The notes under the pieces were generated by a model. It saw only the letters and a list, made by a program, of their open reading frames with translations. It did no database searches and had not been told where the DNA came from. Position numbers and translations under genes: made by a program. Below are positions 15,421 to 62,784 of a stretch of DNA of 64,000 nucleotides, piece after piece (the first letter of the stretch is position 1; every line of letters begins with the position of its first letter). Source of the DNA: Lysobacterales bacterium (lineage in GTDB: Bacteria > Pseudomonadota > Gammaproteobacteria > Xanthomonadales > Rhodanobacteraceae); contig JAFKNA010000007.1 of NCBI GenBank assembly GCA_017305135.1, positions 55,441-119,440 of the forward strand, read 5' to 3'.

Positions 15421-15497
15421 GGCTATGTAGCTCAGACGGTTAGAGCGCGAGACTCATAATCCCGAGGTCGGTGGTTCGATCCCACCCATAGCCACCA
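15421..15497 (+). tRNA. tRNA-Met (anticodon CAT), elongator type
   Basis: 77-nt cloverleaf folded by hand: GGCTATG / GCTC..GAGC / CGAGA CTCATAA TCCCG / GGTGG TTCGATC CCACC / CATAGCC A CCA. The G1-C72 pair and similarity to E. coli elongator Met argue against initiator. There is one A-C mismatch in the anticodon stem. Confidence 0.93.
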
Positions 15498-19286: not shown

Positions 19287-19507
19287 CCTGGTTCGCCGGA
19301 AACCCGGTGCAGAAGCGCGCTGTTCCAGATCCAAGCGAACGACTAAGGTCTCGCCGTGCGAACATCGTGCCTGGGGCTCTTCCGGGCGGGAAGCGAATGC
19401 CGTAGCTATTCCGCCTCGCGGAGCACGCTGCCCACCTGTGAACTCACCGCCGGCCCGGCTCCGCCCCGCCAGTGGACGGCAAGCTGCAACTGAACTGGAT
19501 ACCACCG

Positions 19508-21998
<2,491 letters not shown>

Positions 21999-22006
<8 letters not shown>

Positions 22007-25928: not shown

Positions 25929-26000
25929 AGTGAGGCCGACTGGCGGCGAAGCGGTACGCGGGTAGCATGTGCTATGCGTGACAAGCAACAGGGGGCGGCA

Positions 26001-48125: not shown

Positions 48126-48429
48126 CGCGGCTCACGACGCGGGCAGGAAGCCGCTGCCGTTCGAGGGCTTTGCCGATCGGATCGTCCTCAACACCTTGCA
48201 CGACGCTCCGCATCATGTCCGGATCGAAGACGGCCAGGATCTCAAGGAACGCACTCAGGGCCAGCCCGGGATGCCCAGCTTCCGCCTTGAGTACCGTTTC
48301 CCGGCTGAGGCCGGCCCGTTCCGCAACCTGCTGTTGGGTCAGTCGTCGCCGTCGCCGTGCAACACGCAGCTCCTGCCCGATCTGGCGCACGGCGCGCAAG
48401 ATGTCTGGTGATGCTGATCCCGATTTCAT
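48115..48429 (-). CDS. hipB: HipB-like XRE antitoxin/regulator
   Basis: ARRRRRLTQQQVAERAGLSRETVLKAEAG (HTH). Overlaps the hipA remnant start. Confidence 0.8.
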   Translation of the reverse strand: MKSGSASPDILRAVRQIGQELRVARRRRRLTQQQVAERAGLSRETVLKAEAGHPGLALSAFLEILAVFDPDMMRSVVQGVEDDPIGKALERQRLPARVVSRDDF

Positions 48430-48575
48430 GTGGGCGATACTACACCTTGTAGGCGATAAGGTATAGAAAACTTCACATTCTTGCGCTTTGTTCTTACTGC
48501 AGGAAGATCGCGCCTTCCTCGCTTGCTATCTTGACTTATCGAGCGGTAGAAACAAACGCGGGCGAACTACTCGGG

Positions 48576-48842
48576 ATGAACGTCATGCCCAACACGACAC
48601 CAGCCGCCGAAGCTGCGCCGGGAGACACGGCTCACCTCCTCGAGGTGGCCGAACGCATGCTCGCCAACAGCACGGCGCCAGAGTCCGAAGGGCTCGACCC
48701 GGTGGAATGGCTCGATCGGTGGGTGCAGACGCCGCAGCCGGCACTGGGGGGCAAGAGGCCACGGGAGTTCCTCGACACCCCAGGTGGAGGGGTCGTGGTC
48801 GCCAGGGTGCTGGGGGCCATCGAGAGCGGCGCGTACCAGTGA
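48576..48842 (+). CDS. DUF2384 (Xre/MbcA/ParS toxin-binding) antitoxin, orphan
   Basis: DPVEWLDRWVQTPQPALGGKRPREFLDTPGGGVVVARVLGAIESGAY. The alternative start is TTG 48531. No RES toxin follows. Confidence 0.7.
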   Translation: MNVMPNTTPAAEAAPGDTAHLLEVAERMLANSTAPESEGLDPVEWLDRWVQTPQPALGGKRPREFLDTPGGGVVVARVLGAIESGAYQ

Positions 48843-48981
48843 GATCCTGCGTGTACCGCGGCTAATTTCCCAAGCCGGAGACCTCAACGATGATGGTCGC
48901 GAAGGGCAGGGAAGCCGTTGCGGGTCGCGCCCGCTCCCTTCCCGTACCAGGTCACGGAACGGCCTGGTGCGGGAGTCCTCG

Positions 48982-49209
48982 ATGGAGCACCGCCCGATGT
49001 CCGGACTTGCCAGGCCAGAGCTCACTTTGATCCCCGGCGGCCAGGAGCGCCTGTGGAAGGAGATCATCCAGGACCTCCTCCATTTCCGCAGCGCCGAAGC
49101 ACGCCGGAAATGTGACCGTCTCAGTCACCGGGGCAGCCTGCGGCTGGTGGGTGGTCAACGCGCCGAGGCCTGCGCGGCCAGCGCGCCGGCCGCTTCGCCT
49201 GACGAGTAG
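48982..49209 (+). CDS. small conserved hypothetical (paralogue of 59749-59934)
   Basis: LTLIPGGQERLWKEIIQDLLHFRSAEARRKCDRLSHRGSLRLV aligns with the second copy. The start is uncertain. Confidence 0.4.
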   Translation: MEHRPMSGLARPELTLIPGGQERLWKEIIQDLLHFRSAEARRKCDRLSHRGSLRLVGGQRAEACAASAPAASPDE

Positions 49210-49241
49210 CACGGCGCGGGGCGCCGTGTTCCGTTGACGGG

Positions 49242-49532
49242 CTACCCGGTTGCCCCGCCGCTGATCGAGGCGAGGTAATCCACGACGGCCTGGGCGTGTC
49301 CTTCGAGGACCAGCTGGAGCGGGGTTCGATCCCCGAAGACGGCAACAGGAATGTCGCGCATCCAGCGCGCCACGGCGTCGATGTCGTCGTTGACCTCCAT
49401 TGCGGCGGCCATGACCCGGAGTACCGCTGGAGCGGAATCGCGGTCTGCGAAGATTCCCGCGGGCACGCCGAGCATTTCGGCGAGCTCCTCGGCTCCCATG
49501 CCTGCGAAGGCCAGCGGGGCGGGTGAAGTCAT
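49242..49532 (-). CDS. DUF2384 (Xre/MbcA/ParS) antitoxin, orphan
   Basis: IDAVARWMRDIPVAVFGDRTPLQLVLEGHAQAVVDYLASISGGA. Confidence 0.7.
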   Translation of the reverse strand: MTSPAPLAFAGMGAEELAEMLGVPAGIFADRDSAPAVLRVMAAAMEVNDDIDAVARWMRDIPVAVFGDRTPLQLVLEGHAQAVVDYLASISGGATG

Positions 49533-49540: not shown

Positions 49541-49854
49541 CGTGTCCGGCAGGTCATGCCATTGTACTTCCGCTCGGAGCAACACGGGTGCGTGGCTTGC
49601 GGATGAAGCGGCGCAACGAGCAGGTGAGTGCCGCTCGATGGGGCCGCTGCTGTGCCGCTGGGTCCGATCCGCTGATGGGAACGCCATGTAGGAGATGACA
49701 TCCCTCCGCGGTGCTATCCATGAGGTGGGCGCGGCTTCAGGAAGCTCGGGAAGTAGCTGCCCCGACGGAGCTTTGGGATCCGCGGCTCGGTGTGGCCGGC
49801 CCCATCCCGATGGAGGTCGCGGTTAGCATTGCGCTGCACCAGACGGGTCGGACT
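49541..49854 (-). pseudogene. IS256-family transposase remnant (left part, internally deleted)
   Basis: QRNANRDLHRDGAGHTEPRIPKLRRGSYFPSFLKPR (IPKLRxGSYFPSFL signature). In another frame, MAFPSADRTQRHSSGPIERH is a C-terminal-type motif. Confidence 0.6.
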
Positions 49855-51193
49855 CTGAGGTTTCCCCACGAACTTCCGTTCAGGCTCAGAGGCTTACCGC
49901 TTCGTAGGGTGGAAAGAGATGCGCGCATGGCGCAGTCTTCCAGGTGACGAACCAACGAAGGCTGCAGGCCCATGCGCGCCCAACGAGGATTGCAGAAGTG
50001 CCTGTCCGAGTGTCTGGAAGCCATGCACGCGATGCGGTGCCGAGTGCTGCTGCGTGCGGTGGAGGCGCTGATCGTGGGCCGCAGGTTGACCCTGATGGAT
50101 GTCGCACGCAGCTGGCCCGGCGCCGAACGGGTACGGGCGCCGCTGAAGGCCTTCGACCGCTTGCTCAGCAACCATCACCTGCACGCAGAGCGCGAGCGGC
50201 TGTATGCAGGAATGGCCCGATGGTTGTTGCGCGGCGAGCAACCGGTGATCGTCATCGACTGGTCGGACCTCAAGGCCGACAAGTCCTGGTGCCTGCTGCG
50301 CGCCGCGGTGCCCGTTGGCGGGCGCACCCTGCCGGTGCTGGACATGGTGTTTCCGGGCTCGCAGGCCGGCTCGCCCGCAGCGGAGCAACGCTTCCTGCAG
50401 CGCTTGCGCCATCTGGTTCCGGTGGGTGCCACGCCCATCCTCGTGACCGATGCCGGGTTCCGCAGCCCTTGGTTCCGCGCCGTGGAGAAGCACGGCTGGT
50501 ATTGGCTGGGCCGCCTGCGCCACCGCACCCTGATCAAGCCGGTGGACGCGCATGGCGATGACCAGTGGGTGCCCTCGCGTGCGCTGTACGAGCTGGCGGG
50601 CACACGGCCGCGCGACATGGGCCTCATGGATACGGTGCGGGGCCAACCCTGGACGTGCCGGGTGGTGTTGTATCGAAAGGCGCAGCGGGGCCGGAAGCAC
50701 CGCACGCTCCGGGGTGGCGCCGTGCGCAGCAGCCAGAGCCGCAAGTCTGCGCAGCGCGAACGTGAGCCTTGGCTGCTGGTGGCTTCCCCCGCGCTGGGCC
50801 TGAGCGCCCGCAACCTGGTGACGCTCTACGGCCGCCGCATGCAGATCGAGTCCTCGTTTCGCGACCTCAAGTCGCACCGCTACGGGCAAGGCTTCGAGGA
50901 CAGCCTCACCCGCACCGGGGCGCGCATCGAAATCCTTCTACTGGTGAGCGCGCTTGCCGCATTCGCCTGCTGGCTCGCCGGCCTGGCGAGCGAAGCACTG
51001 GGCATCGCGCACTGGCTCTCGCCCTATCGCACCATCCGCAAGCTCTACTCGATCCTTCGCATCGGCCGTGAGGCGCTGATCCGTGGCTGGCCGCTTGAGC
51101 GAACGACCCAGTGGCTCAGCCGCCTGCACGCCTTGCCCGATTCCGTTCTTGATCAGATGCAGGCCCCCGCGTGACTTCGTGGGGAAACCTCAG
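49855..51193 (+). mobile_element. IS10-like (IS4 family) insertion sequence, apparently intact
   Basis: 1339 bp. The 18-bp terminal inverted repeat CTGAGGTTTCCCCACGAA lies at 49855-49872 and inverted at 51176-51193. The 9-bp direct target duplication GGTCGGACT lies at 49846-49854 and 51194-51202. Confidence 0.9.
49972..51174 (+). CDS. IS4-family (IS10-like) DDE transposase
   Basis: 400 aa. Colinear with IS10 transposase as remembered: VIVIDWSDLK, ILVTDAGFRSPWFRAVEKHGWYWLGRLR, YGRRMQIESSFRDLKS. Confidence 0.93.
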   Translation: MRAQRGLQKCLSECLEAMHAMRCRVLLRAVEALIVGRRLTLMDVARSWPGAERVRAPLKAFDRLLSNHHLHAERERLYAGMARWLLRGEQPVIVIDWSDLKADKSWCLLRAAVPVGGRTLPVLDMVFPGSQAGSPAAEQRFLQRLRHLVPVGATPILVTDAGFRSPWFRAVEKHGWYWLGRLRHRTLIKPVDAHGDDQWVPSRALYELAGTRPRDMGLMDTVRGQPWTCRVVLYRKAQRGRKHRTLRGGAVRSSQSRKSAQREREPWLLVASPALGLSARNLVTLYGRRMQIESSFRDLKSHRYGQGFEDSLTRTGARIEILLLVSALAAFACWLAGLASEALGIAHWLSPYRTIRKLYSILRIGREALIRGWPLERTTQWLSRLHALPDSVLDQMQAPA

Positions 51194-51288
51194 GGTCGGA
51201 CTCTTCTCCGTGCCCGCCACCGTATTCGCCTTCCAGCGCCATCAGGCAGTGGCTGCCAAAGGCGATCCCCTCCCCGGCAGATCGGTGT
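51194..51288 (-). pseudogene. IS256-family transposase remnant (right part)
   Basis: The reading frame continues across the IS10 target site (..VAGTEKSPTRLVQRNANRD..) and carries stops and frameshifts. Confidence 0.4.
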
Positions 51289-51435
51289 CCGCCGGATCCA
51301 GCCGGTGTAGGCCTGTTCGGTGCGCAAGCTGTAGTGCTTGGCGCGGATGCGGCTGCGCACCAGGCCCGTCAGGCGCGGCAGCCGGTCCGCGCCCTTCATC
51401 TCCGTTACGCCCCTGTTTGCAAGCTCGTAATCCAT
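51289..51435 (-). pseudogene. intI: integron integrase remnant (first ~49 codons only)
   Basis: [49 protein letters not shown] matches the IntI N-terminus (IntI1: [33 protein letters not shown], from memory). It is divergent from the cassette array. Confidence 0.7.
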
Positions 51436-51599
51436 TACATGCCCACCTGGCCCGGATACCACCGCCATATTCAGCTTGGCCGGCCCGAGCCGACACCGGC
51501 AAACTCTTGTGTTTCTGTAGGAAATCCGCTTGACCAGGCCGACGAAGTGTCGGAGGATCAGCGCTAGGCCCCGGCTTGGGGTGCTATATCTAGTTAGGT
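51436..51599 (+). other. attI region with recombination core GTTAGGT (51593-51599)
   Basis: Lies between the intI start and the first cassette. The core matches the GTTRRRY shared by all downstream attC R' sites. Confidence 0.5.
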
Positions 51600-52392
51600 G
51601 CGCTTGGAAATATCCTCGCAAAAGCAACTCCGGGAGCATGGCCAGCCAGACTTCTGCTACCTGTGCGGAGAGCCACTAGCGAACGGACTGCCTACCGACC
51701 GCGATCACTGCCCGCCGAAGGGATTCTTCTCACCCGCGGATCGTGAGAACTACCCGATCATTTTGCGGACCCACAAGCCGTGCAATCACCTCTGGCATGG
51801 CGCCGACGAACTTGTCGGCATCGTCGCTGATGCTCTACACACGAGAAGGAAGAGCTTTGACACGTCATTTAAAAAAAAGCTCGATGCAACCCTAGTCCCG
51901 TTCGGCCAAGCACTTGCCGCGGCTGTAACAAACCTTCCTCTCGCGCCCGCAGCGGCGCGGATCGTGCGCGGCATGCACGCACTGCTCTACAACGATTTCC
52001 TGCCACAACGCACTCAGAGCAAGTTCCACATTCCGCTGCCAGAAGCTGATCCACAAACGGGTCGCATGGTTCAGCCCCTAGATCAAACCTATGCGTTCTC
52101 TAGCACGGTGCGTAGGGCCATACTCACTGGCACAGCCGATGAGGTGCGTGCGTATAACGGCAGTTTCAGGTACGCGTGCACCTGGGACCGCTTGGATAGC
52201 GGAACGCCGATCTGCCTCGTGGTCTTTAACATCTACGCCTTCCATACACTCGCGCCAAAGGTCAGTAACTTTCCCAAGTGCTTCGTCGGCATGTACATTC
52301 CACGTCAGGCACCCGTAACCGCATCTTGGGTGTCTCCGCTAAAGGTGGAGCTGAAACGTGGAGAGGTGTTGGATCCGCTGCAGCGCACCTAA
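51598..52392 (+). CDS. cassette 1: HNH-like zinc-finger protein, unknown function
   Basis: FCYLCGEPL...DRDHCPPKGFF...HKPCNHLWH. GTG 51598 or TTG 51604 is the start. The stop TAA lies inside attC1. Confidence 0.6.
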   Translation: MRLEISSQKQLREHGQPDFCYLCGEPLANGLPTDRDHCPPKGFFSPADRENYPIILRTHKPCNHLWHGADELVGIVADALHTRRKSFDTSFKKKLDATLVPFGQALAAAVTNLPLAPAAARIVRGMHALLYNDFLPQRTQSKFHIPLPEADPQTGRMVQPLDQTYAFSSTVRRAILTGTADEVRAYNGSFRYACTWDRLDSGTPICLVVFNIYAFHTLAPKVSNFPKCFVGMYIPRQAPVTASWVSPLKVELKRGEVLDPLQRT

Positions 52393-52446
52393 CAATTCGT
52401 CCAAGCCGACGCCGCTTCTCGGCGCGGCTTAACTCAGGCGTTAGGC
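52387..52446 (+). repeat. attC 1 (60 bp)
   Basis: ACCTAAC...GCCGACGCCGCTTCTCGGCGCGGC...GTTAGGC, with internal dyad symmetry. Confidence 0.85.
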
Positions 52447-52479
52447 CGCTATCAACCGCTTCGACAACCGGAGAGAATC

Positions 52480-52752
52480 ATGGTCGAGCTGTTTGACAAT
52501 GACGAGACTGGATACCTCAGGTGGGTTCAGGCCAACCCGCACGGCTTCGTCGCAAACGTCGATCGCGCTGGGAGGGTGCCGCAATACCCCATGGTTCACG
52601 CAGCGACTCATGGCTCAATGTCCAGCGCCAAGATTGGCAACTTCACAACCGGCGACTACATCAAGTTCTGTAGCACTGATCTGGCTGCCCTGGAGCAATA
52701 TTCACAAACCAAGTTTGATCGGTCGCTGACCCGTTGTTCTACTTGTATGTAG
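52480..52752 (+). CDS. cassette 2: hypothetical 90-aa protein
   Basis: A single ORF fills the cassette. MVELFDNDETGYLRWVQANPHGFVANV... Confidence 0.6.
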   Translation: MVELFDNDETGYLRWVQANPHGFVANVDRAGRVPQYPMVHAATHGSMSSAKIGNFTTGDYIKFCSTDLAALEQYSQTKFDRSLTRCSTCM

Positions 52753-52765
52753 TCATGCGGGCGCG

Positions 52766-52876
52766 GCCTAACAGTTCGTTCAATCCGACGCCGCTTCGTT
52801 ACGCGAGCCACATGGCAGATAAAGCTTGCCATGTGTTCGCTCCACTACGCGGCGCGGCTTAACTCAGGCGTTGGGC
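52766..52876 (+). repeat. attC 2 (111 bp, long variant)
   Basis: GCCTAACAGTTCGTTCAATCCGACGCCGCTTCG...CGCGGCGCGGCTTAACTCAGGCGTTGGGC. Confidence 0.8.
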
Positions 52877-53169
52877 TGCAATTCGGATTGGAGGTTTTCA
52901 GTCGTGTCGCGTTGCCGTATCGGGTTCTGCAATCGCCAGCGCCAGAAAAGCAGTTTCGGCCAGGCTGCGCGGCGCGCACGGGCGTGGCGTGTGGAGGCTT
53001 CGGCTTCGGGGTGGCGCATCTTTCGGGGTATCGCAACGTCAGTAGTGCGGCTTCTTTCGGCCCGCCTCATCGCGGCTGTCTCTGGCAGGCTTCCGTCATG
53101 CGCTCCAGGCGTGGCGGGCTTCGCTTGCAGGCGCTTCGTGTTTCGGTCGCGGCGATTTGATACATTGCT

Positions 53170-53229
53170 GCCCAACAAGTCATTCAAGCCGACCGCGTTT
53201 CACGCGGCGGCTTAATTTCGGCGTTAGGC
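53170..53229 (+). repeat. attC 3 (60 bp)
   Basis: GCCCAACAAGTCATTCAAGCCGACCGCGTTTCACGCGGCGGCTTAATTTCGGCGTTAGGC. Confidence 0.85.
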
Positions 53230-53233
53230 GGCA

Positions 53234-53623
53234 ATGGACGAGAAGGTTAGCTCTCTACACAAAATTCTTGAGGCCATAGCTTCGCAACGAGGGCTACGCC
53301 TTGCTTATGACACGCACTACGATGCGGGGAACCTAGAACTTTCGTGGTGGCAGGGAAAGACGCGGCACCGTTTGGACTTTCAGCCGCTGCACGCTGAGCC
53401 TCTGCAAGTCACTCACCTGCTAGACACATATCCGTTCTTGCCAAAGCTGCTCCTTTGGTGTCGTCGCTACGTCCCAATGTTTCCCGTTCTTCCAAAAGTG
53501 CAATGGCAAACCCTTGGTTCTCTGCCGGAGCCCTACGCAAGGGAAAGCGTCGAGGAGTTGATACTAAGTGTGTTGCCACCTAACAGTTCATTCAAGCCGA
53601 CGCCGCTTCGCGGCGCGGCTTAA
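53234..53623 (+). CDS. cassette 4: hypothetical 129-aa protein
   Basis: The ATG lies 4 nt after the attC3 core. The ORF reads into attC4. Confidence 0.6.
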   Translation: MDEKVSSLHKILEAIASQRGLRLAYDTHYDAGNLELSWWQGKTRHRLDFQPLHAEPLQVTHLLDTYPFLPKLLLWCRRYVPMFPVLPKVQWQTLGSLPEPYARESVEELILSVLPPNSSFKPTPLRGAA

Positions 53624-53637
53624 TTCAGGCGTTAGGT
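53578..53637 (+). repeat. attC 4 (60 bp)
   Basis: ACCTAACAGTTCATTCAAGCCGACGCCGCTTCGCGGCGCGGCTTAATTCAGGCGTTAGGT. Confidence 0.85.
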
Positions 53638-53647
53638 GATTGAATAC

Positions 53648-54187
53648 ATGACTCGGCCAGTTATACGAAAGGCAACAGCCGACGATGCCGCAGAGCTGTC
53701 GATTCTCGCCGAATCCACATTCCGAGCGACATTCGCTGAAGCGAATACGGAGGCCAACCTTGCTCAACACTGTCGAGCCGCGTACGGTGAACCGATCCAG
53801 CGCTCTGAAATTCTTAGCTCAGAGGTACGCACCATCCTCGCAGAGTGCAACGAGTCATTAGTTGCGTATGCCCAGCTGCGCCTGTCAAAAGCACCGTCCT
53901 GTGTTGTGGGCACTCGGGCAATAGAGATTCAGCGGCTTTACGTCGCCCAGTCCTGGCATGGCCGAGGGCTTGCTCAGGCGCTAATGAGTGCTTGCCTCAC
54001 AGAGTCTCAGGCAGTTCAGGCCGATGTTGTGTGGCTCGGTGTGTGGGAGCACAATCCAAGAGCCATCGCATTCTACAAAAAGTTCGGCTTCGTCGAGGTT
54101 GGCGAGCACATATTCCAACTTGGCGAGGATCCCCAGCGGGACATTATCATGGTCAGGTTCAGCGAAGGCTCCCGTGCAATCACCTAA
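53648..54187 (+). CDS. cassette 5: GNAT-family N-acetyltransferase
   Basis: IRKATADDAAEL...IEIQRLYVAQSWHGRGLAQALMSA...NPRAIAFYKKFGFVEVG. The stop TAA lies in attC5. Confidence 0.85.
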   Translation: MTRPVIRKATADDAAELSILAESTFRATFAEANTEANLAQHCRAAYGEPIQRSEILSSEVRTILAECNESLVAYAQLRLSKAPSCVVGTRAIEIQRLYVAQSWHGRGLAQALMSACLTESQAVQADVVWLGVWEHNPRAIAFYKKFGFVEVGEHIFQLGEDPQRDIIMVRFSEGSRAIT

Positions 54188-54271
54188 CTATGCGTTCAAG
54201 CGGACCTGCGGGGAGAGGCTTTCTATGAACCGAGCGATGTCGGCCGCAGGCCGCTTAACGCGGCGTTAGGG
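54182..54271 (+). repeat. attC 5 (90 bp)
   Basis: ACCTAACTATGCGTTCAAGCGGACCTGCGG...CCGCAGGCCGCTTAACGCGGCGTTAGGG. Confidence 0.8.
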
Positions 54272-54275
54272 GCCT

Positions 54276-54713
54276 ATGAAAGGGACGTTCAATCGGATAG
54301 CACCAGCAGCATTCGCTGAGAAGACTGGCATTCCGCTGGGATGGATAGTCATTTCGCACCGCTGGATGCCTGACAAGTCCGAGCGCAGACGCGCGCACGG
54401 CAAGTGGTTTCGGCTTAAGAGTGCACATGGCACTTCCTACCGTGTCTTGCGTTTCTCAGCCAACCTCACGGGATCGCCTCCAGATAACCCAGGGGACTTG
54501 GTCTTGGACTGGCCTGCTTGGCTTGAGCTCAACGGCTATGCGGATGACGTGTCAGGGCCGCTTCAACTTGAGATCACTAAGGCAAGCTTGTGGCAGCTAC
54601 CTCAGCTCGCAGCATCCCACCCAGATCCTGCCATGCGCCTGTCCAGCATGCTGGGTCTTGTATCGGTCATTCTTGGCGTCTTATCCATCATTTTGGCGGT
54701 CGCACTTACGTAA
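54276..54713 (+). CDS. cassette 6: hypothetical protein with C-terminal TM helix
   Basis: 145 aa, ending MLGLVSVILGVLSIILAVALT. Confidence 0.6.
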   Translation: MKGTFNRIAPAAFAEKTGIPLGWIVISHRWMPDKSERRRAHGKWFRLKSAHGTSYRVLRFSANLTGSPPDNPGDLVLDWPAWLELNGYADDVSGPLQLEITKASLWQLPQLAASHPDPAMRLSSMLGLVSVILGVLSIILAVALT

Positions 54714-54720
54714 GGGCGGC

Positions 54721-54780
54721 CCCTAACAATTCGTCCAAGCCGACGCCGCTTCGCGGCGCGGCTTAACTCAGGTGTTAGGG
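54721..54780 (+). repeat. attC 6 (60 bp)
   Basis: CCCTAACAATTCGTCCAAGCCGACGCCGCTTCGCGGCGCGGCTTAACTCAGGTGTTAGGG. Confidence 0.85.
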
Positions 54781-54783
54781 CGC

Positions 54784-55125
54784 ATGACCAGCCTCACCGA
54801 AGATTGGCCAGACGATGCAGACGGCAGCGTGTTTCGCCGGCTTGTTGAACACGGCTTTGACTTCTCCAAACCGCACTCAGTTGACTACAACGTTGACTTT
54901 GAGAGTTGGCCGCCTGCCCAAGGCGCGATTGAGCTTCTAGACTCGCTGTACGGCCCTCTTACGCTCTACGATCCGGACGAGCATGGCGACGGCTACATCC
55001 AGTTTCAGATCCATGCGCCGGTAACGTATGAGGGCGTGACCGCCGTCCAGCGCAAGGTAAGTGCTGCCATGGAGCCGTATGGCGGTGTTTGCGAGTCCTG
55101 GGGAGTCATGCAAGATGCGCCCTAA
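54784..55125 (+). CDS. cassette 7: RraB-like (regulator of ribonuclease activity B family) protein
   Basis: WPDDADGSVFRRLVEHGFDFSKPHSVDYNVDFESWP. The family call is from memory of the RraB/DUF1260 pattern. The stop TAA lies in attC7. Confidence 0.55.
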   Translation: MTSLTEDWPDDADGSVFRRLVEHGFDFSKPHSVDYNVDFESWPPAQGAIELLDSLYGPLTLYDPDEHGDGYIQFQIHAPVTYEGVTAVQRKVSAAMEPYGGVCESWGVMQDAP

Positions 55126-55179
55126 CAATTCATTCAAGCCGACACCGCTTCGCGGCGCGGCTTAATTCAGGCGTTAGCC
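55120..55179 (+). repeat. attC 7 (60 bp)
   Basis: CCCTAACAATTCATTCAAGCCGACACCGCTTCGCGGCGCGGCTTAATTCAGGCGTTAGCC. Confidence 0.85.
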
Positions 55180-55189
55180 GCTACAGACC

Positions 55190-56446
55190 ATGCCAATCGG
55201 ACCGATCGCGCTCTTCGACAAATCCTTCATCCAGTCGCTCTCGGCTGATGAGGCCGTCTGGTTCGACCATTTTTTCCTATCCAACATTTGTCCAATTTTC
55301 TACGTTGAAACCTTAGCTGACCTATCGAAGGAGTTGAAAGAGGGGCGAACTGCAGAACACTTGGTCTCAACGATCGCCGACAAAACGCCTGAAATTCATG
55401 GCTCACCTTGTGTGCACCACTCCGAGCTCTGCGAAGCAAGTTTGTTTGGCTACGACGTTCCATTGACTGGTCAAATCCCACTAGCAGGCGGCAGACCTGT
55501 TCAAACCGGGGATCATCGGGGCGTTGTGTTCGTCAGGTCCCCTGAAGCGCAAGCCTTCCACAGGTGGCAACAACAGCGTTTCGACCTCGTAGAGCGTGAC
55601 TTCGCCTCCAATTGGCGGACTGCACTTAGCCAGACAAATCTTAAGAACTCCGCGAATAGGCTTGAGGCAATTGGCTGTCCTTCCTCTCCTTGCAAATCGC
55701 TTGACTTGGCCGCTCAGGTAGCCCGATCTACCGTTGATAACTTAGAAAATACCCACCTCAAGATCTCGTATCTGACTGCCTTGCTCGGGTTGAAGAACAA
55801 GCAAAGAGAGGAGGCCCTCTCTCTCTGGCGAAGAGCTGGATGCAGGCCTCTTCGAACGCACGCTCCTTATGCAGCGCACGTTCTAGAGATTGAAATATTC
55901 TTCCAGCTTGCCCTGACTTCAAGCTTGATCAGCGCCGATCGTCCTTCAAACAGAGTTGACATCGCCTACCTTTATTACCTTCCTTTTGCTCATTTTCTTG
56001 TCTCATCAGACAAGCTACATCGCTCCTCTACTCAAGCAATCGCCGGAGCAGATCGATTCGTGTGGGGCCCCGACCTAAAAAGAGACCTTCAAGCAATCAA
56101 CCTAGCGTTTCAGGCGACTACTCCACAGGAGCGTGAGAGCGGCCTTTCCGTTATCGCCCCTCACCCGCCGGACACGGGCGAATCGCTTGTCATCGAACTT
56201 TGGGACAAGTTCACACCCGCTTGGAGACGCATAAAAGAGGTTTCAACAGGCGCGTCGGGAGCCTCCAATTCAGCCCTAGCGCGCAGCATTCAAGAACTTC
56301 CCAATGCACCTACTGCCACAGGCCGTGAAGCGATTGAAATCATGCGTGACCCGCCATCTGTTTCAATCGAGAGACACGTCAGGGCACAGCGCGGTAGCTG
56401 GTGGCAGCTTCCCAAGTCGGTCACCGAGAAAAAGCGTAGCGGCTAA
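55190..56446 (+). CDS. cassette 8: 418-aa protein with PIN-like acidic motifs
   Basis: IALFDKSFIQSL, PIFYVETLADL and DIAYLYYLPFAHFLVSSDK suggest a PIN-like fold with a large insert. The stop TAA lies in attC8. Confidence 0.6.
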   Translation: MPIGPIALFDKSFIQSLSADEAVWFDHFFLSNICPIFYVETLADLSKELKEGRTAEHLVSTIADKTPEIHGSPCVHHSELCEASLFGYDVPLTGQIPLAGGRPVQTGDHRGVVFVRSPEAQAFHRWQQQRFDLVERDFASNWRTALSQTNLKNSANRLEAIGCPSSPCKSLDLAAQVARSTVDNLENTHLKISYLTALLGLKNKQREEALSLWRRAGCRPLRTHAPYAAHVLEIEIFFQLALTSSLISADRPSNRVDIAYLYYLPFAHFLVSSDKLHRSSTQAIAGADRFVWGPDLKRDLQAINLAFQATTPQERESGLSVIAPHPPDTGESLVIELWDKFTPAWRRIKEVSTGASGASNSALARSIQELPNAPTATGREAIEIMRDPPSVSIERHVRAQRGSWWQLPKSVTEKKRSG

Positions 56447-56530
56447 CAATTCGTTCAAGCCGAGCCCGCTTCGCGGCCTCGGCGCCACCCGGTTCGCCTC
56501 GGGCGGGCCGGCTTAACTCAGGCGTTAGCA
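56441..56530 (+). repeat. attC 8 (90 bp)
   Basis: GGCTAACAATTCGTTCAAGCCGAGCCCGCTTCGCGG...GGGCGGGCCGGCTTAACTCAGGCGTTAGCA. Confidence 0.8.
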
Positions 56531-56534
56531 CTGC

Positions 56535-57026
56535 ATGGACACTCCTCTGAAAGCCCGAGATATCATTCGATCAATTGTCGGGGGCGATCTTGCTGCCGCG
56601 CTCAAGTCAGCTGGGTTCAGGAAATCTGGCCTCACCTTTACGCGCCGCACCGGCTCTACAGGACAACTGATTCAGATACAGCTTTCTAGCTGGAGCCATG
56701 GGTCGTCCGGCACTTTCTTTGTGAACGTCGCTGTCATGTTTGATGACATGTGCGCAAAAGATAGAACTCCTCCAGTCCAGCCAAAATACGACGACTGCCA
56801 GTTCATGGCTCGACTTGAGCGAATTGTCCCGGAGGCACCTGCGCATTGGGGCGTTGATGCACAAACTTCCAGCGATGAAGTGTCAAGACTGCTAACCAAT
56901 TACCTAGTTAAGTCGGTAATTGAACCTCTAGATCAGGTTGCTTCATTGGCGGATTTCGAGAGAACGGGATGGGTCAAGGCAATCCCTTGGAGCTTCCCTG
57001 CGCCAACTTCCGCACTTCCCCTCTGA
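56535..57026 (+). CDS. cassette 9: DUF4304-like protein; no attC follows
   Basis: LKSAGFRKSGLTFTRRTGSTGQLIQIQLSSWSHGSSGTFFVNVAV. The downstream sequence runs into an IS1634-family element instead of an attC. Confidence 0.6.
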   Translation: MDTPLKARDIIRSIVGGDLAAALKSAGFRKSGLTFTRRTGSTGQLIQIQLSSWSHGSSGTFFVNVAVMFDDMCAKDRTPPVQPKYDDCQFMARLERIVPEAPAHWGVDAQTSSDEVSRLLTNYLVKSVIEPLDQVASLADFERTGWVKAIPWSFPAPTSALPL

Positions 57027-57160
57027 TTCCTTCGACCAGAAACCCCCGCCAGTCATGGGTTTCCGGGCTTTTTCGGGTTCATTCCAAGAAGGTCGTGTTG
57101 TGCCACGTCATGCGCTAAAGCGTCTTGCATGGCGCGTGATGTGTGTTGTACTGTCGTGCC

Positions 57161-58801
57161 ATGTACGTACGCATCAAGCAAAGCGGGCCGCGGCAGTACC
57201 TGCAGCTGGTGGAAGGTCGCCGCGAGGACGGCAAGGTGCGCCAACGGGTCGTGGCTACCCTCGGCCGGGTCGATCAGCTTCAGCAGGGCGCGCTGGATGC
57301 ACTGATCGCGGGGCTGCAGCGCGTCGCCGGCCAGGCGACGGGGTCGGCGGAGCCGCAGTTCCAGTTCGCCCAGGCGTTCGGCCACGTCTACCTGCTGCAT
57401 GAGCTTTGGCAGCCGCTGGGCCTGGAAGCGGCCCTGGCTCGGGCGCTACGCTCCTCGCGCCGCCAGTTCGATGCCGCGCAAGTGGTGCGCGCCATGGTGT
57501 TCAACCGCCTGTGCGAGCCCACCTCCAAGCTGGGCGTGCTGCGTTGGCTGGAGACGGTGAGCCTGCCCGAGGCGCCCGAGAAGGTGACGCACGACCAGTT
57601 GCTGCGGTCGATGGACGCCTTGATGGATCACATCGACGCGGTCGAGCTGGCCGTGGCGGCGCAGCTGCGCCCGCTCCTTGATCAATCGCTATCGATCGTG
57701 TTCTACGACCTCACCACAGTGCGCATCCATGGCGAGGGCACGGTGGGCGAGGACGTGCGGGCGTTCGGGCTCAACAAGGAAATCCGCGGCATTGCGCGCC
57801 AGTTCGTGCTCGGCGTGATCCAGACGGCGGAAGGAGTGCCGATCGCCCACCAGGTCCATGCCGGCAACGTGGGCGAGGTGTCCACGCTCCTGCCCGCCAT
57901 CGAGAAGGCCATCGCCCAATACCGGATCGAGCGGGTGGTGCTGGTGGCCGATCGCGGCCTGCTGAGCCTGGACAACCTGGACGCGGTGGAGCGGCTTCGA
58001 ACCGCCCAGGGCGCAGGCGTTGAATACATCCTGGCCGTGCCGGCGCGCCGCTATGCCGACTTCGGGGAACGCGTCGCGAGCATGCGCTTGGACGCAGGCG
58101 TGGGCGAAACCACGTGGGAAGATCGGCGCCTGGTGGTCGCGCACGATCCCGCGCGGGCCGTCGAGCAAGGCGCCAAGCGCCGTCGCCTGATCGAGAGCAT
58201 CGAGGCGGAAGGCGAGCGCATGGCCCAGCGGCTGGATGCTGCCGATGACGGCAAGCCCCTGCGCGGGCGCAAGTCAACCGATCGGCGCGCCTACCTGCGC
58301 TTCTGCGAACAGGTCAAGGAGGCGGGCTTAAGCCGTATCCTCAGGGCGGACCTGGAGGCCGACCGCTTCAGCTTCCATCGCGACGAGGCGGCGCTCGCCC
58401 ACGCCGAGCAGCTCGATGGCAAGCTGTTGCTGGTCACCAATACCGGACTCAAGGCCGACGACGTGGTGGCGCGCTACAAGGCGCTTGCCGACATCGAACG
58501 CGGCTTCCGTGTGCTCAAGAGCGACATCGAGATCGCACCCGTCCATCACCGCTTGCCCGAGCGCATCCGCGCCCACGCGCTGATCTGCTTCCTGGCGCTG
58601 GTGCTGCACCGGGTGATGCGGATGCGGCTCAAGGCGGCCGGCAGCAACCAGTCGCCGACAGCGGTCCTCAGGATCCTGCAGACCATCCAGCGCCATCAGG
58701 TCAAGGTCGGCACAGAAACCCTGCGCGGCATCAACGCGCCCACCCTTGCCCAGCAAGAACTCTTCACCGCACTCGGCACCCAAACCCCGCCCAACCACTA
58801 G
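57161..58801 (+). CDS. IS1634-family (IS4 superfamily) transposase
   Basis: MYVRIKQSGPRQYLQLVEGRREDGKVRQRVVATLGR is the typical N-terminus. Also VVLVADRGLLS and YKALADIERGFRVLKSDIEIAPVHH. Element ends were not resolved (roughly 57.03-58.86 kb). Confidence 0.9.
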   Translation: MYVRIKQSGPRQYLQLVEGRREDGKVRQRVVATLGRVDQLQQGALDALIAGLQRVAGQATGSAEPQFQFAQAFGHVYLLHELWQPLGLEAALARALRSSRRQFDAAQVVRAMVFNRLCEPTSKLGVLRWLETVSLPEAPEKVTHDQLLRSMDALMDHIDAVELAVAAQLRPLLDQSLSIVFYDLTTVRIHGEGTVGEDVRAFGLNKEIRGIARQFVLGVIQTAEGVPIAHQVHAGNVGEVSTLLPAIEKAIAQYRIERVVLVADRGLLSLDNLDAVERLRTAQGAGVEYILAVPARRYADFGERVASMRLDAGVGETTWEDRRLVVAHDPARAVEQGAKRRRLIESIEAEGERMAQRLDAADDGKPLRGRKSTDRRAYLRFCEQVKEAGLSRILRADLEADRFSFHRDEAALAHAEQLDGKLLLVTNTGLKADDVVARYKALADIERGFRVLKSDIEIAPVHHRLPERIRAHALICFLALVLHRVMRMRLKAAGSNQSPTAVLRILQTIQRHQVKVGTETLRGINAPTLAQQELFTALGTQTPPNH

Positions 58802-58857
58802 CGTTGTGCCACAAATGCCACTTCGAGCATAAGTGGATCAAGCACTTACGTCGTTAG

Positions 58858-59271
58858 CTGCGGAACTTGGGGGAGCAGCAACTGCTCGGCCAGCCCGTGC
58901 TCTGCCTCTCGCGCTACTTCCTGCGCCGGCGTGCCGACTATCACCGCCTGCTGCTCGCCGTCACCCGCGATGACGCCTGGGAAGAGTGGATCGCCTTCAT
59001 GCTGGAAGCGGTCACCCAAGCCGCACACTGGACCAGTGACAAGATTCGCGCGATCCAGTGCCTGCACGCGCAGGCTTCGGACTTTGTGCGCACCCGCGCG
59101 GGAAAGATCTACAGCCGTGAGCTGGTCGAGGCCTTGTTCGTGCACCCGTACTGCCGCATCCAGAACCTCCTGGATGCCGGGATCGCCCAGCGCCAGACCG
59201 CCTCTGTCTATCTCAAGAAGCTGGTCGACCTCGGCATGGTGATTGAGCTCAGGGCCGGACGGGAAAAGTAG
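58858..59271 (+). pseudogene. Fic-family protein, C-terminal fragment only
   Basis: PVLCLSRYFLRRRADYHRLLLAVTRDDAWEEWIAFMLEAV...LKKLVDLGMVIELRAGREK is the region after the Fic core plus a winged helix. The 5' part is missing at the IS junction. Confidence 0.65.
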
Positions 59272-59748
59272 TTCCTGCATTCCCATCTCGTCCACCTGCT
59301 CACCAGCGAGGGCCACTCCGTGCTGTCGTACGACATCAGCACCCACGGTCAGTGACAGGTGTCATTGCCGGCAAGATTGCGCAGCGCAGGCCACTATCGG
59401 GGCGGGTCCCATGTGATGGGACGTGTCGCGCTCGGGAAGATCGCCGGCTGGCCGAGCGATTGGGCCTGGAAGCCGGGCAACTGGGGGACGCCTCTGTGCG
59501 TCAGGAGATTCTCCATGGCGTCCTGCAGGTCCTCGCCGAAGCGTCGGAATCCAGCTTGACCTGCAGGTGGCGATCCGGAGGGTCCGGGATGTCCCGATCC
59601 CCTCCTTAGATTCACTCAGCCTGCTCGAGCTCACAGTCTGCGCCGACCGGACGCAGCCGTACGCTACCTGCACTCCGTCGCCGGCGGGGCCGCAGGGTGA
59701 CGGCGTGTGGCTTCGGGTCCAGAACCAGGTGCGGCAGGTAATCCGTGG

Positions 59749-59934
59749 TTACGTACGGGAGCTGGCGCGCGGCTCCGTCTTTGGAACTACCTGCAGCTGA
59801 CCCCGACGCCGCAGGATTTCGCATTTCGCCCGCGCCTCGGCAGTGCGGAAGGCGAGAAGGTCCCGCACGACCTCGCGGTGCAAGGACTCCCTGCCACCAT
59901 CGATCCGGGTGAGCTTGGCCTCTATCGTATCCAT
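59749..59934 (-). CDS. small conserved hypothetical (paralogue of 48982-49209)
   Basis: MDTIEAKLTRIDGGRESLHREVVRDLLAFRTAEARAKCEILRRRGQLQVV. Confidence 0.35.
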   Translation of the reverse strand: MDTIEAKLTRIDGGRESLHREVVRDLLAFRTAEARAKCEILRRRGQLQVVPKTEPRASSRT

Positions 59935-60489
59935 CCGAAACCCTCCGTACGTGACGCGGTCACGCAGTTGATCCGCTGGGACCAAGCGGCCGCTTGGATC
60001 TCTTCGTCGATCGCGCTATGGCTCATGTCTTGGGCATCTTGTGTGGGCTCCGCGGACGCGAGCCGGGCACGCTTAGCCTCGGCGGCGCTCCATCGACGAG
60101 CGTCCATCCAGATGGGACCTCGGTCGCCAATAGATACGCTCCGCTCACGACCGACCCTACCACCTGGGCCACCGCCGCACCCCTTTCCGGCGTGGCCGAC
60201 AGGTCAAGGGCTTCCGACCCCCCGAGCGAAGGCTGTGGGATCTGAAGCTACCGGTTCCAGCCATGCCGCAGGGTCCGTATCCCCGGCGTCCATGCCCTAC
60301 TGTGGGCCAGCATCCGCGTGGCCATCCATGAGATGCACCATGTGTGCGGCCACCGCGGCTGGACCAGGAGCAGGTGGCACTCCGATTTTCAGGCATCTTC
60401 AGGCCTCCTTGGAAAATTATGCGTCCGCGCATAATTGGGGCTAACTCGCTGGCGAGCCATCGTCGTGCCCGGAGGGTGCAGCCCCTCGG

Positions 60490-61086
60490 TCATGACACGT
60501 TGCTTTCAAAGACGCCGTAGTACCACGCCGTGCCGAGAGGGCTGGTCAGGATTGAATCCATCGCCGGTTGCGGGATCCACGCCATGATCCGGATCATGCT
60601 ATCCGTACATGCCCCCGTGATGGCCTGTACCTTCAGGCCACGGTGGAGGAACTCGGGCGCGTTCTGCAGGAACACGGACTTGGCGCCCTCTGCGGAACCG
60701 CAGGCCGCCACAGGCAAGGTCCGACCCTCGCCGGTTGCGAAGTGGTCGGAATAGGCGACATGGAAGTCAGTAAGGAGGAACCGGTCCCCCGCGGACCCGA
60801 GTGTGCTGGGGCGACCCCTGGCCCGGCCAACAAGCTCCTGCAGGACTTCCTCGTGCCTGCCGATTGCGAGCGCTTCCAGGGGTGGTCGTCCGAGCGCGTT
60901 GCTCCACTCGGTGAGGTACTCCCCCAGCCGGTGGTGGTGCGGGAACCCGCCCGTGGGCCCTGTGTCGAGCGCTTCGGCGGACACGGCGTAGATTTCGGGA
61001 AAGTCGTCCCTGAGCGCATACACCGCCTGGGCGCGCACGCTCCATAACGAGCGCCAGATTTCCTTGAACCGTTCTCCGGTATTCAC
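60490..61086 (-). CDS. hypothetical protein
   Basis: GTG start behind GGAG. 198 aa with ordinary composition. No family recognised. Confidence 0.55.
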   Translation of the reverse strand: MNTGERFKEIWRSLWSVRAQAVYALRDDFPEIYAVSAEALDTGPTGGFPHHHRLGEYLTEWSNALGRPPLEALAIGRHEEVLQELVGRARGRPSTLGSAGDRFLLTDFHVAYSDHFATGEGRTLPVAACGSAEGAKSVFLQNAPEFLHRGLKVQAITGACTDSMIRIMAWIPQPAMDSILTSPLGTAWYYGVFESNVS

Positions 61087-61443
61087 GATTTCTCCTTGGA
61101 TATCGTCGGTGCGAAAGCTCGCCCTACCTGCCGAGCAATGAACTCGCGGTGCTGAGCTCCGGGACGGGCGTGCGCCTCGGCAGCATCGGTCATGCGAGTC
61201 TCAGAAGCTAAGACGATCCTCGCGACCGGAGGGTCTGCGCACCGCCTGGTGCCACGCAAACCCCCCGACAGAATGGGCATTTACGCGACATTTCTCCCAG
61301 ATCCGTCCGCCAGACTGGTACCTAAGCCAAGGCGGCCCTCACCGCCATGGCGCGAAACACCCCCCCACTGTGGGGTGCTTTCGACCCTACCGAGGCGGCA
61401 CGCACCACGTATCGTGGTTGCATGACATGGAGGAGAACTTACC

Positions 61444-62154
61444 GTGACAGATAGCACCGATGGGGTATTGCTCTACCGCCTGCCGCGGGAAAACAACACT
61501 GGCAAAGTGCCGGTCCCCCGCACGGATTTGATTGACCGCACTACGTTAGTGCGGACTGCCCTGTTGCTAGATATTTTTCTGCCGGGGCACGGCGAGCCGA
61601 GACTCGTATTCACAGTGGATCTAGGATTTATTGAGCTCCCCCCACAATTGATGGCGAGTGTGTACCCGTCTGTCTCTGCTCTGATAGACGACGTGGAAGA
61701 CCTCAATACCTGGCTAGCCGACTGGGCAAGCTCGACGGAACGTCTACCCGATTGTCGCCCGGAATGGGCGTCGCGCCACGGGATCGCGGAAGAGGTCGTG
61801 AGGCGGATTGCCCATCGGCTCGCGCATGAGCTCGCCCAGAGCAGAGCCAAGGAGATCCCCCTCTGCACGATGGCTGAGAGTACTAACGTACTGCGAGTAC
61901 CGGCACGCTCTCAGCTGGTCCCACCTGCGCCTCCTGTCGAGCGGGACCTTATCGGTGCACGGCTGTGTCACGCATACCGAACCGTGACCGCAGTCACTTC
62001 GACAGGGGCATCGATCTACTTGATGGCCGACGGAGCCGTTGTGTTCCCAGAGACGACTAGTTATTCGATTCCTTATCGCGTGGTTCAACGCAGAAAGGCC
62101 TTCGATGCAACAACAGTCTCAGCTTCGGGAGTGTTGGACAATGAGGAAGGCTGA
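61444..62154 (+). CDS. hypothetical protein
   Basis: GTG 61444 sits 8 nt after GGAGGAG. 236 aa. No family recognised. Confidence 0.6.
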   Translation: MTDSTDGVLLYRLPRENNTGKVPVPRTDLIDRTTLVRTALLLDIFLPGHGEPRLVFTVDLGFIELPPQLMASVYPSVSALIDDVEDLNTWLADWASSTERLPDCRPEWASRHGIAEEVVRRIAHRLAHELAQSRAKEIPLCTMAESTNVLRVPARSQLVPPAPPVERDLIGARLCHAYRTVTAVTSTGASIYLMADGAVVFPETTSYSIPYRVVQRRKAFDATTVSASGVLDNEEG

Positions 62155-62782
62155 AACCGTGCATATCGGCGTGGCGGCTGCCATAGAGGGGATGCCAGAC
62201 AGGCCCTCGATGGCGCTACAGGATTACCTCTGCCACGTCGATCAGCTACATCGTGTTTGCCGGGGGCTGGCCATCGATCCTGCCGGCGTGGTTCCCCGGC
62301 GCGTCGATGAGAAGTATATCCACTATGTTCTCACCGAACACGTGAGTAATTTGCCATCCACAGTGGACGGAGCCTGCGATGAAACGCCGGTGGACACCGA
62401 CGAAAAAGAATCTATTACGATCGAGGCCAGATCCAAGGCGCTCAGCGAGGAACAGACAAGCGCAGCGCCCGATGAAATCCTACGAACGCGTAGTGTTCCG
62501 CCACCGCCTGTCATAATAAACGGAGTAGCTGCACCCGCAGCCCTGTGGCAGCGCCAGCGATCTCCAGGTCGGCCCGGGGATGGTCCGTCTATTCTGGCGA
62601 CGATTGCGGGCCCAGGCCCCATGTACTACGTTCTGCCCCACGCGAATGTCATAGGGCCAGCGCTGGCGGGAGGTGCGGTACCCGGCATGCTCGTGGACAT
62701 CCTCGGCGCCTCGCAGACAACCATCCTCTTGGCGGACGCCGATGTACTGCAGCGTGCGCTGCCTTTCCCTTCCCAAGAGTGA
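62141..62782 (+). CDS. hypothetical protein
   Basis: ATG 62141 overlaps the upstream gene by 14 nt. 213 aa with an acidic middle and a Pro/Gly-rich C-terminal half. Confidence 0.5.
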   Translation: MRKAETVHIGVAAAIEGMPDRPSMALQDYLCHVDQLHRVCRGLAIDPAGVVPRRVDEKYIHYVLTEHVSNLPSTVDGACDETPVDTDEKESITIEARSKALSEEQTSAAPDEILRTRSVPPPPVIINGVAAPAALWQRQRSPGRPGDGPSILATIAGPGPMYYVLPHANVIGPALAGGAVPGMLVDILGASQTTILLADADVLQRALPFPSQE

Positions 62783-62784
62783 CA

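Follow-up and report, generated by a model that had tools for sequence, protein, structure and literature searches.

A probable sedentary integron of the Xanthomonadales type with eight attC sites and a truncated integrase gene in a Lysobacterales genome

The attC array and its cassette boundaries

Our analyses concerned a stretch of 64,000 nucleotides from a Lysobacterales bacterium (GenBank assembly GCA_017305135.1, contig JAFKNA010000007.1, positions 55,441 to 119,440 of the forward strand), referred to here as the window; all positions are counted from its first letter. Between 51289 and about 56997 the window carries, in this order, the 5′ stump of an integron integrase gene on the minus strand (ΔintI, 51289–51435), an attI region on the plus strand (51436–51599) with the core GTTAGGT at 51593–51599, and eight attC sites that delimit nine gene cassettes, the last of which is truncated. 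We are confident that this locus is an integron platform that has lost its integrase. The same arrangement had been proposed in a first-pass annotation, made by a model from the letters alone, and its coordinates, repeat lengths, spacing and core at 51593 proved correct throughout; the arrangement itself was borne out by a covariance model, by a site identical to that of the aadB cassette, by a register test, by attI homology and by homologues of the cassettes in other genomes.

All eight attC sites lie on the plus strand, and the units that they bound measure 353 to 1,351 bp. Five sites are 60 nt long (attC1, 52387–52446; attC3, 53170–53229; attC4, 53578–53637; attC6, 54721–54780; attC7, 55120–55179), two are 90 nt long (attC5, 54182–54271; attC8, 56441–56530) and attC2 is a 111-nt site of the long class (52766–52876). 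They had been described beforehand as imperfect repeats with an RYYYAAC-like start, a GTTAGGN or GTTAGCN end and a palindromic centre, a description that holds in slightly modified terms. Specifically, each site opens with an R″ box (NNCTAAC or GCCCAAC), followed by a 5-nt spacer, an L″ box (RTYCAAGC), a stem with one unpaired A and a variable loop, while the 3′ half consists of an L′ box (GCTTAAY), a spacer of 5–6 nt and an R′ box (GTTRGNN). Two positions are unpaired in every site: the C of L″ and the A that follows the stem of the L box. They read as G and T, respectively, on the bottom strand, where these two bases, lying outside the helix, are typical of attC sites. The 19-mer GGCTTAAYTCAGGCGTTAG, searched with up to three mismatches, occurs in seven copies in the 64-kb window, all of them on the plus strand and all within the array, where the number expected by chance from 100 shuffles was 0.

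For recognition of the sites by an independent standard we built a covariance model, R1, from 60 distinct 60-nt attC sites of other genomes, with no sequence from the window. R1 found six of the eight sites. The five 60-nt sites were recovered at E values of 2e-19 to 4e-25, with a best score of 89.9 bits (attC1, 1.2e-21 over its full length, with canonical R″, L″, L′ and R′ boxes; attC3, 2e-19; attC4, 4e-25; attC6, 4e-23; attC7, 1.1e-22), and attC8, which has a 31-nt insertion in the loop, was recovered at 2.8e-11. The scan of the 64 kb yielded no other convincing attC beyond the array. Rejection of the repeats by an attC covariance model had been named in the first-pass annotation as an outcome that would overturn its reading; a model drawn from other genomes instead accepts six of the eight (E 4e-25 to 3e-11). 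In the 60 relatives' sites the canonical structure is 93.7% paired, and this pairing collapses once the partner columns are slid. The same sites show 97 double-change cells compared to 31.5 in shuffles, a value that none of 500 shuffles reached.

One of the sites is known from clinical resistance integrons. Over 58–59 nt of its length of 60, attC6 is 100% identical to the attC with which the aadB/ant(2″)-Ia cassette ends, a functional site that occurs in thousands of plasmid class 1 integrons; in the annotated locus L002 (L numbers denote loci or contigs retrieved for comparison) the match falls precisely between aadB and the cassette that follows it. aadB has been listed among the resistance cassettes that carry an attC of Xanthomonadales type (Ghaly et al., PMC8352920). 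The present match shows the attC of this clinical cassette once more to be of that type, and the site is all that the two cassettes share, the gene before attC6 being an unrelated ORF (open reading frame) of 145 residues.

Crossover by integron integrases (IntI) takes place after the G of R′ and before its TT, which leaves the final six bases of a site in the cassette that follows; these bases should then complement the R″ of that following cassette. Seven of the eight cassettes begin with the exact 7-base complement of their own R″, whereas self-complementarity within the site was found in two of eight. The matches extend to rare variants (GTTGGGC/GCCCAAC, GTTAGCC/GGCTAAC and GTTAGGG/CCCTAAC); thus, the variant R″ of attC3, GCCCAAC, pairs with the GTTGGGC that opens its own cassette. 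In relatives, 73 of 103 informative neighbor pairs were in cassette register, compared to 11 of 103 within the site. The test also ties the first cassette to the GTTAGGT at 51593, as TTAGGT is the exact complement of the R″ of cassette 1. This complementarity is the mark predicted for IntI crossover at G|TT. By their anatomy, the identity of one of them to a known attC, the independent model and the register test, the eight repeats are attC sites, and their recombination by an integron integrase is predicted.

Integrase stump, attI region and bordering insertion sequences

ΔintI comprises the first ~49 codons of an integron integrase gene, the remainder of which has been deleted. The stump matched the NCBIfam model NF011946 at profile positions 19–43 (E 2.3e-5; 23.8 bits, compared to a cut-off of 435) and TIGR02249 at positions 5–28 (E 5e-4, likewise far below cut-off), the low scores being due to the fact that only a stump is present. 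In tblastn searches, residues 20–42 of IntI1 matched 51360–51292 with 70% identity, and no further IntI pieces were found in the window. Combined with the attC model scan, these searches indicated that the 64 kb hold no functional intI. We also compared the stump with the intI genes of 15 fetched loci. Every alignment stopped at ...WIRR, at position 51290, the best being that with L043 (73% identity over 30 residues); relatives share the start codon at 51435. When proteins were searched with the stump, five short fragments but nothing of full IntI length came back, and the plasmid IntI1 and the intI genes of the fetched loci were used for comparison instead. A PDB sequence search with the stump gave an antibody match only, which was set aside as spurious.

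The attI region was aligned, over 51340–51660, with the intI–attI regions of eight loci that carry a full intI. The alignment contains conserved intergenic blocks, GTTAG (51593–51597) is invariant, and similarity ends right after this core, as expected where cassette-specific DNA begins. The GTTAGGT noted at 51593 in the first-pass annotation is hence the attI core. Facing the cassettes within attI is a promoter-like pair, TTGACC (51530–51535) and GAGGAT, separated by 17 nt and located 63 nt before the core. Six of the nine sequences have such a pair at the same −63 offset; relatives read TTGACG–17 nt–AATACT or similar, and five of them match the consensus better than the window does. The first cassettes are probably still transcribed from this pair, which is positionally conserved in relatives.

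A second feature of attI is a GC hairpin at 51569–51582, ~10–25 nt upstream of the core, which is also found in L043, L053, L064, L050, L117 and L092. Its stems differ among the relatives (CCCC/GGGG, CCGC/GCGG and TTCC/GGAA, nine sequences compared), and RNAalifold predicted five pairs from the nine sequences, four of them with a compensatory double change. We know of no described function for this hairpin, and it could be an undescribed functional part of attI in this integron lineage.

On its left the stump abuts a relic of a transposase gene (51203–51288, minus strand), which continues at 49714–49845 beyond the insertion of an intact IS4-family, ISXac1-like insertion sequence (IS; 49855–51193, plus strand; NF033591, E 8e-96). 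The latter has inverted repeats and a perfect 9-bp target duplication, GGTCGGACT, at 49846–49854 and 51194–51202; it is 66% identical to ISXac1, with homology from ~49848, and lies 96 bp from the intI stump. As the cause of the intI truncation this element was rejected, because the 9-bp target duplication identifies it as a simple insertion. When it was removed in silico, the minus-strand frames at 51290 read ...RIPKLRRGSYFPSFLKPR..., pieces of an IS256/Mutator transposase. We had also considered 51203–51289 as a second IntI fragment ("ALEGEYGGGH") and dropped this idea on the reading of these frames. The relic is tentatively assigned to the IS256/Mutator family on these pieces and on a match to Pfam Transposase_mut (E 6.5e-4); it gave no NCBIfam match. 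Because the relic has no 5′ end of its own, 51289/51290 appears to be the joint at which a deletion fused intI and the IS, both of them truncated.

At its other end the array stops at an IS1634-family element on the plus strand (56998–58875, ends approximate; NF033559, E 7.5e-110), as the first-pass annotation had it. The element has weak terminal inverted repeats (56998–57014 and 58859–58875). At its left end it stands where the final codons of cassette 9 and the attC of that cassette would be, and at its right end begins the C-terminal fragment of a Fic (SoFic-like) adenylyltransferase gene (58876–59271; profile positions 213–344 of 361). Neither the 19-mer search nor the R1 scan found an attC after cassette 9. 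As the genes that meet the IS1634-family element on its two sides are both truncated and unrelated to each other, a rearrangement, not a simple insertion, would have removed or displaced the distal array.

Cassettes and their products

The cassette ORFs are unidirectional, all on the plus strand, and in four cassettes (C1, C5, C7 and C8) the TAA inside R″ is the stop codon. The first-pass annotation had assigned one same-strand ORF to each unit, which stands for eight of the nine; the exception is C3 (52871–53223, 353 bp, GC 0.62), where we found no convincing ORF, no family match, no Rfam match and a folding z-score of −0.2. Rfam gave no match over the array as a whole. That only three of the nine cassettes have recognisable products was upheld by Pfam. 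C5 (53632–54265, 634 bp) encodes a GNAT acetyltransferase (ORF from 53636 or 53649 to 54187; PF00583, E 3.5e-16), the nearest NCBIfam model being the PaiA-like NF053587 (E 3e-33, under cut-off). C7 (54775–55173, 399 bp) encodes an RraB-family protein (ORF from 54772 or 54784 to 55125; PF06877, E 3.9e-15). C9 (56525 to ~56997) encodes a truncated DUF4304 protein (ORF from 56535; PF14137, E 3.6e-17, profile positions 2–114 of 115).

The other cassettes code for proteins of unassigned function. These are C1 (51594–52440, 847 bp; ORF from 51598 or 51604 to 52392, 262–264 residues), C2 (52441–52870, 430 bp; ORF 52480–52752, 90 residues), C4 (53224–53631, 408 bp; ORF 53234–53623, 129 residues), C6 (54266–54774, 509 bp; ORF 54276–54713, with a hydrophobic C terminus) and C8 (55174–56524; ORF 55190–56446, 418 residues), which belongs to a large uncharacterised family. 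Pfam, NCBIfam, PADLOC and PHROGs gave no family match for C1, C4 and C6. Searches of the cassette proteins against the last three of these collections returned nothing beyond the acetyltransferase, with no defence match for the unassigned cassettes. An rve transposase gene elsewhere in the window (39228–40235) matches the attC-bearing locus L045, and was rejected as a cassette.

In other genomes, homologues of C1, C2, C7 and C8 are each accompanied by an attC of their own. The first-pass annotation had held that its reading would fail if the same genes were found elsewhere as core genes without flanking repeats, and for none of the cassettes that we traced was this the case. A C7 homologue (63% identical) is a cassette between attC sites at 6391–6450 and 6788–6847 of L019 (Xanthomonas sp. 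Leaf148), and a C2 homologue (61% identical) is flanked by two attC sites in L114. The C1 family has 54 members, the named sources of which are Lysobacter, Pseudoxanthomonas and Rhodanobacter. In L129 and L127 (Pseudoxanthomonas kalamensis and Lysobacter sp. Hz 25), the C1 homologues end in their own attC (E 1.6e-14 and 7e-10, respectively), and their similarity to C1 of the window begins exactly at GTTAGGT. The C1 protein was modelled by AlphaFold2 with a predicted local distance difference test score (pLDDT) of 93, and no PDB fold matched with E < 0.1. A comparison of residues 14–71 with the C-terminal region of a group II intron maturase (E 0.18), a weak HNH-like hint, is not relied on.

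The C1 homologue of P. kalamensis stands alone at 8001–8842 of L129 between zipA and an aminotransferase gene, near ligA, and keeps an attC with a degenerate R′ end, GTAAGGC. It resembles a lone cassette that was inserted at a secondary site within core genome surroundings.

The C8 family comprises at least 1693 homologues of ~420 residues without a Pfam domain, with members in Paraburkholderia, Cupriavidus, Acidovorax and Planctomycetota records (proteins P0006–P0125). Its invariant residues include D20, E21, W24, D26, E40, S253-N254-R255, S272, D274 and H277. The AlphaFold2 model of C8 (pLDDT 88) had no fold match with E < 0.1 in the PDB or BFVD. One homologue, P0014 (61% identity), is a cassette in the metagenomic contig L123; its unit has the same length of 1351 bp and is bounded by a different, AT-richer type of attC with GGCTAAC/GTTAGCC complementarity. 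Other C8 homologues lie beside a Rep_trans gene or a phage-type integrase. A PIN-like nature of C8, suggested by an N-terminal strand–helix pattern and by the invariant D/E/S-x-D residues, received no support from Pfam scans of 38 family members. It is conceivable, though we consider it rather improbable, that the C8 family represents a new accessory function on mobile elements, such as a nuclease-type toxin or a defence protein; a functional role for the attI hairpin, a separate matter, is put at the same low level. C1 and C8 stand for two well-populated families of unmatched fold that are mobile as cassettes, and both could be candidates for structural or functional work.

Identity, history and surroundings of the integron

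We scanned species-representative genomes with GGCTTAAYTCAGGCGTTAG. At least 120 stretches matched, mostly from Luteimonas, Lysobacter, Pseudoxanthomonas, Xanthomonas, Thermomonas and Arenimonas. The label "Xanthomonas-type" given in the first-pass annotation is therefore right as to the attC family but too narrow, as the family extends to these and other genera. The 60 sites behind R1 come from these genomes. From the relatives (loci L003–L122), 278 sites were extracted, and they fall into discrete length classes of 60 nt (205 sites), ~112 nt (~50), 70 nt (5) and 90 nt (5), the same as those in the window. In sequence and predicted structure the sites match chromosomal attC sites of the Xanthomonadales, and the family belongs to the Xanthomonadales-like clade (PMC8352920). 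Arrays of this type were also seen in some contigs of metagenome-assembled genomes labelled Burkholderiales, Comamonas, Rhizobium, Bacteroidetes, Acidobacteriota and Gemmatimonadota, which could reflect either binning error or real spread outside the Lysobacteraceae.

Chromosomal integrons of Xanthomonas were reportedly described by Gillings et al. in 2005. The locus shares with the chromosomal integrons of Xanthomonas, the Xanthomonadales and the Lysobacteraceae the attC family with its 60-nt and ~112-nt classes, an IntI N terminus that is 57–73% identical to most members compared, and a homologous attI region. In those integrons, as here, the cassettes are mostly of unassigned function, and inactivation of intI and involvement of IS elements are frequent. 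As the first-pass annotation had remarked, the GC content of the cassettes lies below that of the core genome: computed along the window, it is 0.52–0.62 in the units and 0.65–0.70 in the flanks. Xanthomonas genomes are nearer 0.64–0.65, and by its GC content of 0.65–0.70 the window probably comes from a host other than Xanthomonas. A chromosomal location is likely, given that the window also contains a tRNA-Met gene and a purH-like reading frame. We conclude that the locus is very probably a sedentary integron of the Xanthomonadales/Lysobacteraceae type without an integrase. The array, eight complete cassettes and one cut off, is an ordinary example of a known element.

As to its state, a complete integron has an integrase gene encoding a tyrosine recombinase with the IntI-specific extra domain, of which only codons 1–49 are left here. 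It also has an attI that flanks intI on the 5′ side and whose GTTRRRY core adjoins the first cassette, and this part is still in place; for the cassette promoter Pc that would read into the array, the promoter-like pair is a candidate. With eight attC sites 353–1351 bp apart and no integron integrase nearby, the locus would be a CALIN (two or more clustered attC sites without an integron integrase nearby) under the IntegronFinder scheme, with attI retained, a class assigned here from the definition of the scheme. It resembles a CALIN (PMC4889954) in having several attC sites in a row without a usable intI. It differs in retaining attI together with codons 1–49 of intI, which make the origin of the array visible; it is a degraded complete integron and not an orphan cluster. 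In Xanthomonas it is common for intI to be truncated, for arrays to lack intI and for integrons to be flanked by transposase genes (Colombi et al. 2025, PMC12444791). The stump of 49 codons is shorter than the truncated intI genes described, such as that of 561 bp in X. oryzae pv. oryzicola. The position of intI immediately downstream of ilvD, a hallmark of Xanthomonas integrons, was tested at the level of motifs: when all six frames were scanned, the window contained neither of two signature patterns for IlvD/Edd, and the DNA beside the stump consists of the IS256-like relic, the IS4-like element and toxin–antitoxin-like genes.

Several observations weigh against this interpretation or parts of it. 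The 60-nt model R1 scored attC2 (E 0.18) and the most divergent site, attC5 (E 0.09, for the L-box/stem part only), weakly, so that the status of both rests on box anatomy and the register test and, for attC2, also on similarity to the long class. Indeed, attC2 is 91% identical to an attC of the 112-nt class in L003 and 72–87% identical to many in L064, L039, L038 and elsewhere, and attC5 has, by inspection, all boxes and both bulged positions, a DNA fold of −25 to −27 kcal/mol and a register match of 7/7. C3 has no convincing ORF, as the only candidates in it are rich in arginine and extend into the attC sites. The promoter-like pair of attI is a consensus match only, at 8 of 12 positions, and a generic promoter scan of the plus strand from 51150 to 57100 returned no promoter-like site. 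As for the borders, the Transposase_mut match of the IS256-like relic reaches 19.1 bits, below the cut-off of 21, and the ends of the IS1634-family element are uncertain, a plasmid search for them having found distant relatives only.

The array is probably frozen. We infer that it cannot rearrange itself and that any change would require an IntI acting in trans, whether from another place in the genome or from an element that enters the cell. That a second, intact IntI, elsewhere in the genome or on a plasmid, does in fact reshuffle the cassettes is unlikely, yet it is the strongest of the alternatives. The attC sites look intact, six of them scoring at E ≤ 3e-11 and all eight keeping both bulged positions, the cassette-register complementarity is still perfect in seven of eight, and about half of Xanthomonas genomes pair arrays without intI with loci that bear one (PMC12444791). 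However, apart from the stump the 64 kb encode a single tyrosine recombinase, an integrase of phage type (16630–17997), and in Xanthomonas, where intI is truncated or absent in most strains, arrays are described as stable after its loss (PMC12444791).

It is less probable still that the relic was acquired horizontally as a block, as cargo of a tRNA-Met genomic island or of an IS-bounded segment, and is not ancestral. The tRNA-Met gene, followed by an integrase gene and restriction/defence genes, lies directly to the left, IS elements stand on both sides, the window has no ilvD motif, and a relocated, transposase-flanked integron away from ilvD is reported from X. oryzae pv. oryzicola (PMC12444791). 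But the flanking IS elements are of different families and thus make no composite transposon, the right end of the island is undefined, as the window contains no repeat of the tRNA 3′ end, and the attC type and the IntI stump fit the inferred family of the host.

A fragment of a mobile, class 1-like resistance integron, which the presence of the plasmid-borne aadB attC might suggest, is effectively refuted by the comparison with attI1: the attI1 of L002 shows no similarity to the window beyond 44 nt of intI coding sequence. The platform, that is intI and attI, differs from that of class 1. The stump aligned with IntI1 over 23 residues (70%), compared to 30 residues (73%) for the Lysobacteraceae IntI of L043, and there is no resistance cassette in the array and no tni gene or module or class 1 3′ conserved segment among the flanking genes. 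The named sources of cassette homologues are Lysobacter, Pseudoxanthomonas, Rhodanobacter and Xanthomonas. Finally, the reading that the repeats belong to a different class of intergenic repeat (REP/BIME, MITEs or a CRISPR array) and resemble an integron only superficially, for which it can be said only that they are imperfect palindromes between ORFs, is refuted by the identity of one repeat to the aadB attC, by the fit of the covariance model, covariation, register and adjacent attI and intI stump to an integron, and by units of 353–1351 bp with ORFs, unlike CRISPR spacers.

The mechanism of integron capture is established, and if the locus is a sedentary integron that has lost its integrase, as we believe, its individual steps may be inferred as follows. 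A tyrosine recombinase, IntI, encoded divergently from the array, would have folded the bottom strand of the attC of a circular cassette into a hairpin in which the R and L boxes are paired and a G and a T remain extrahelical. Recombination of this hairpin with attI by IntI, at the G|TT step of GTTAGGN, would have added the cassettes singly next to attI. A deletion would then have removed intI after codon ~49 and fused the stump to the IS256-like relic, into which the IS4-like element was presumably inserted later, and the IS1634-family element and an associated rearrangement would have removed the end of C9 and whatever followed. The locus is one more decayed integron in a well-studied lineage and matters little beyond its correct annotation; it displays at a single place the usual route of decay: deletion of the integrase gene, accumulation of IS elements and loss of the distal array.

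The remaining features of the window lie on both sides of the integron. An exact 40-nt duplicate of the 5′ half of the tRNA-Met gene (15421–15497) lies 72 nt upstream of it (15348–15387); the window holds no further copy of the tRNA 3′ end. Downstream of it is a genomic island of defence-type content (16630–47085), which begins with the phage-type tyrosine integrase gene noted above, the product of which has an Arm DNA-binding domain, and includes genes for HsdM (19472–22006) and HsdR (25974–29321) of a type I restriction-modification system, an AAA_5 (McrB-like) protein (30084–32528), the rve transposase, and a DUF4011/AAA_11/AAA_12/MTES_1575 helicase-nuclease of 1894 residues (41401–47085). 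At the right end of the window (59300–64000), ORFs at 60490–61086, 61444–62154 and 62785–63984 gave no family matches; the last of them extends, in Logan contig L001, to a protein of 1786 residues without a Pfam match, and the GC content dips to 0.57–0.60 at 61.4–62.6 kb. Between the island and the integron there is a cluster of antitoxin-like ORFs without a recognised toxin partner (48127–49532), composed of a HipB/Y4mF-like helix-turn-helix protein gene (48127–48429, minus strand) and two Xre/MbcA/ParS antitoxin-domain ORFs (48567–48842, plus strand, and 49242–49532, minus strand).

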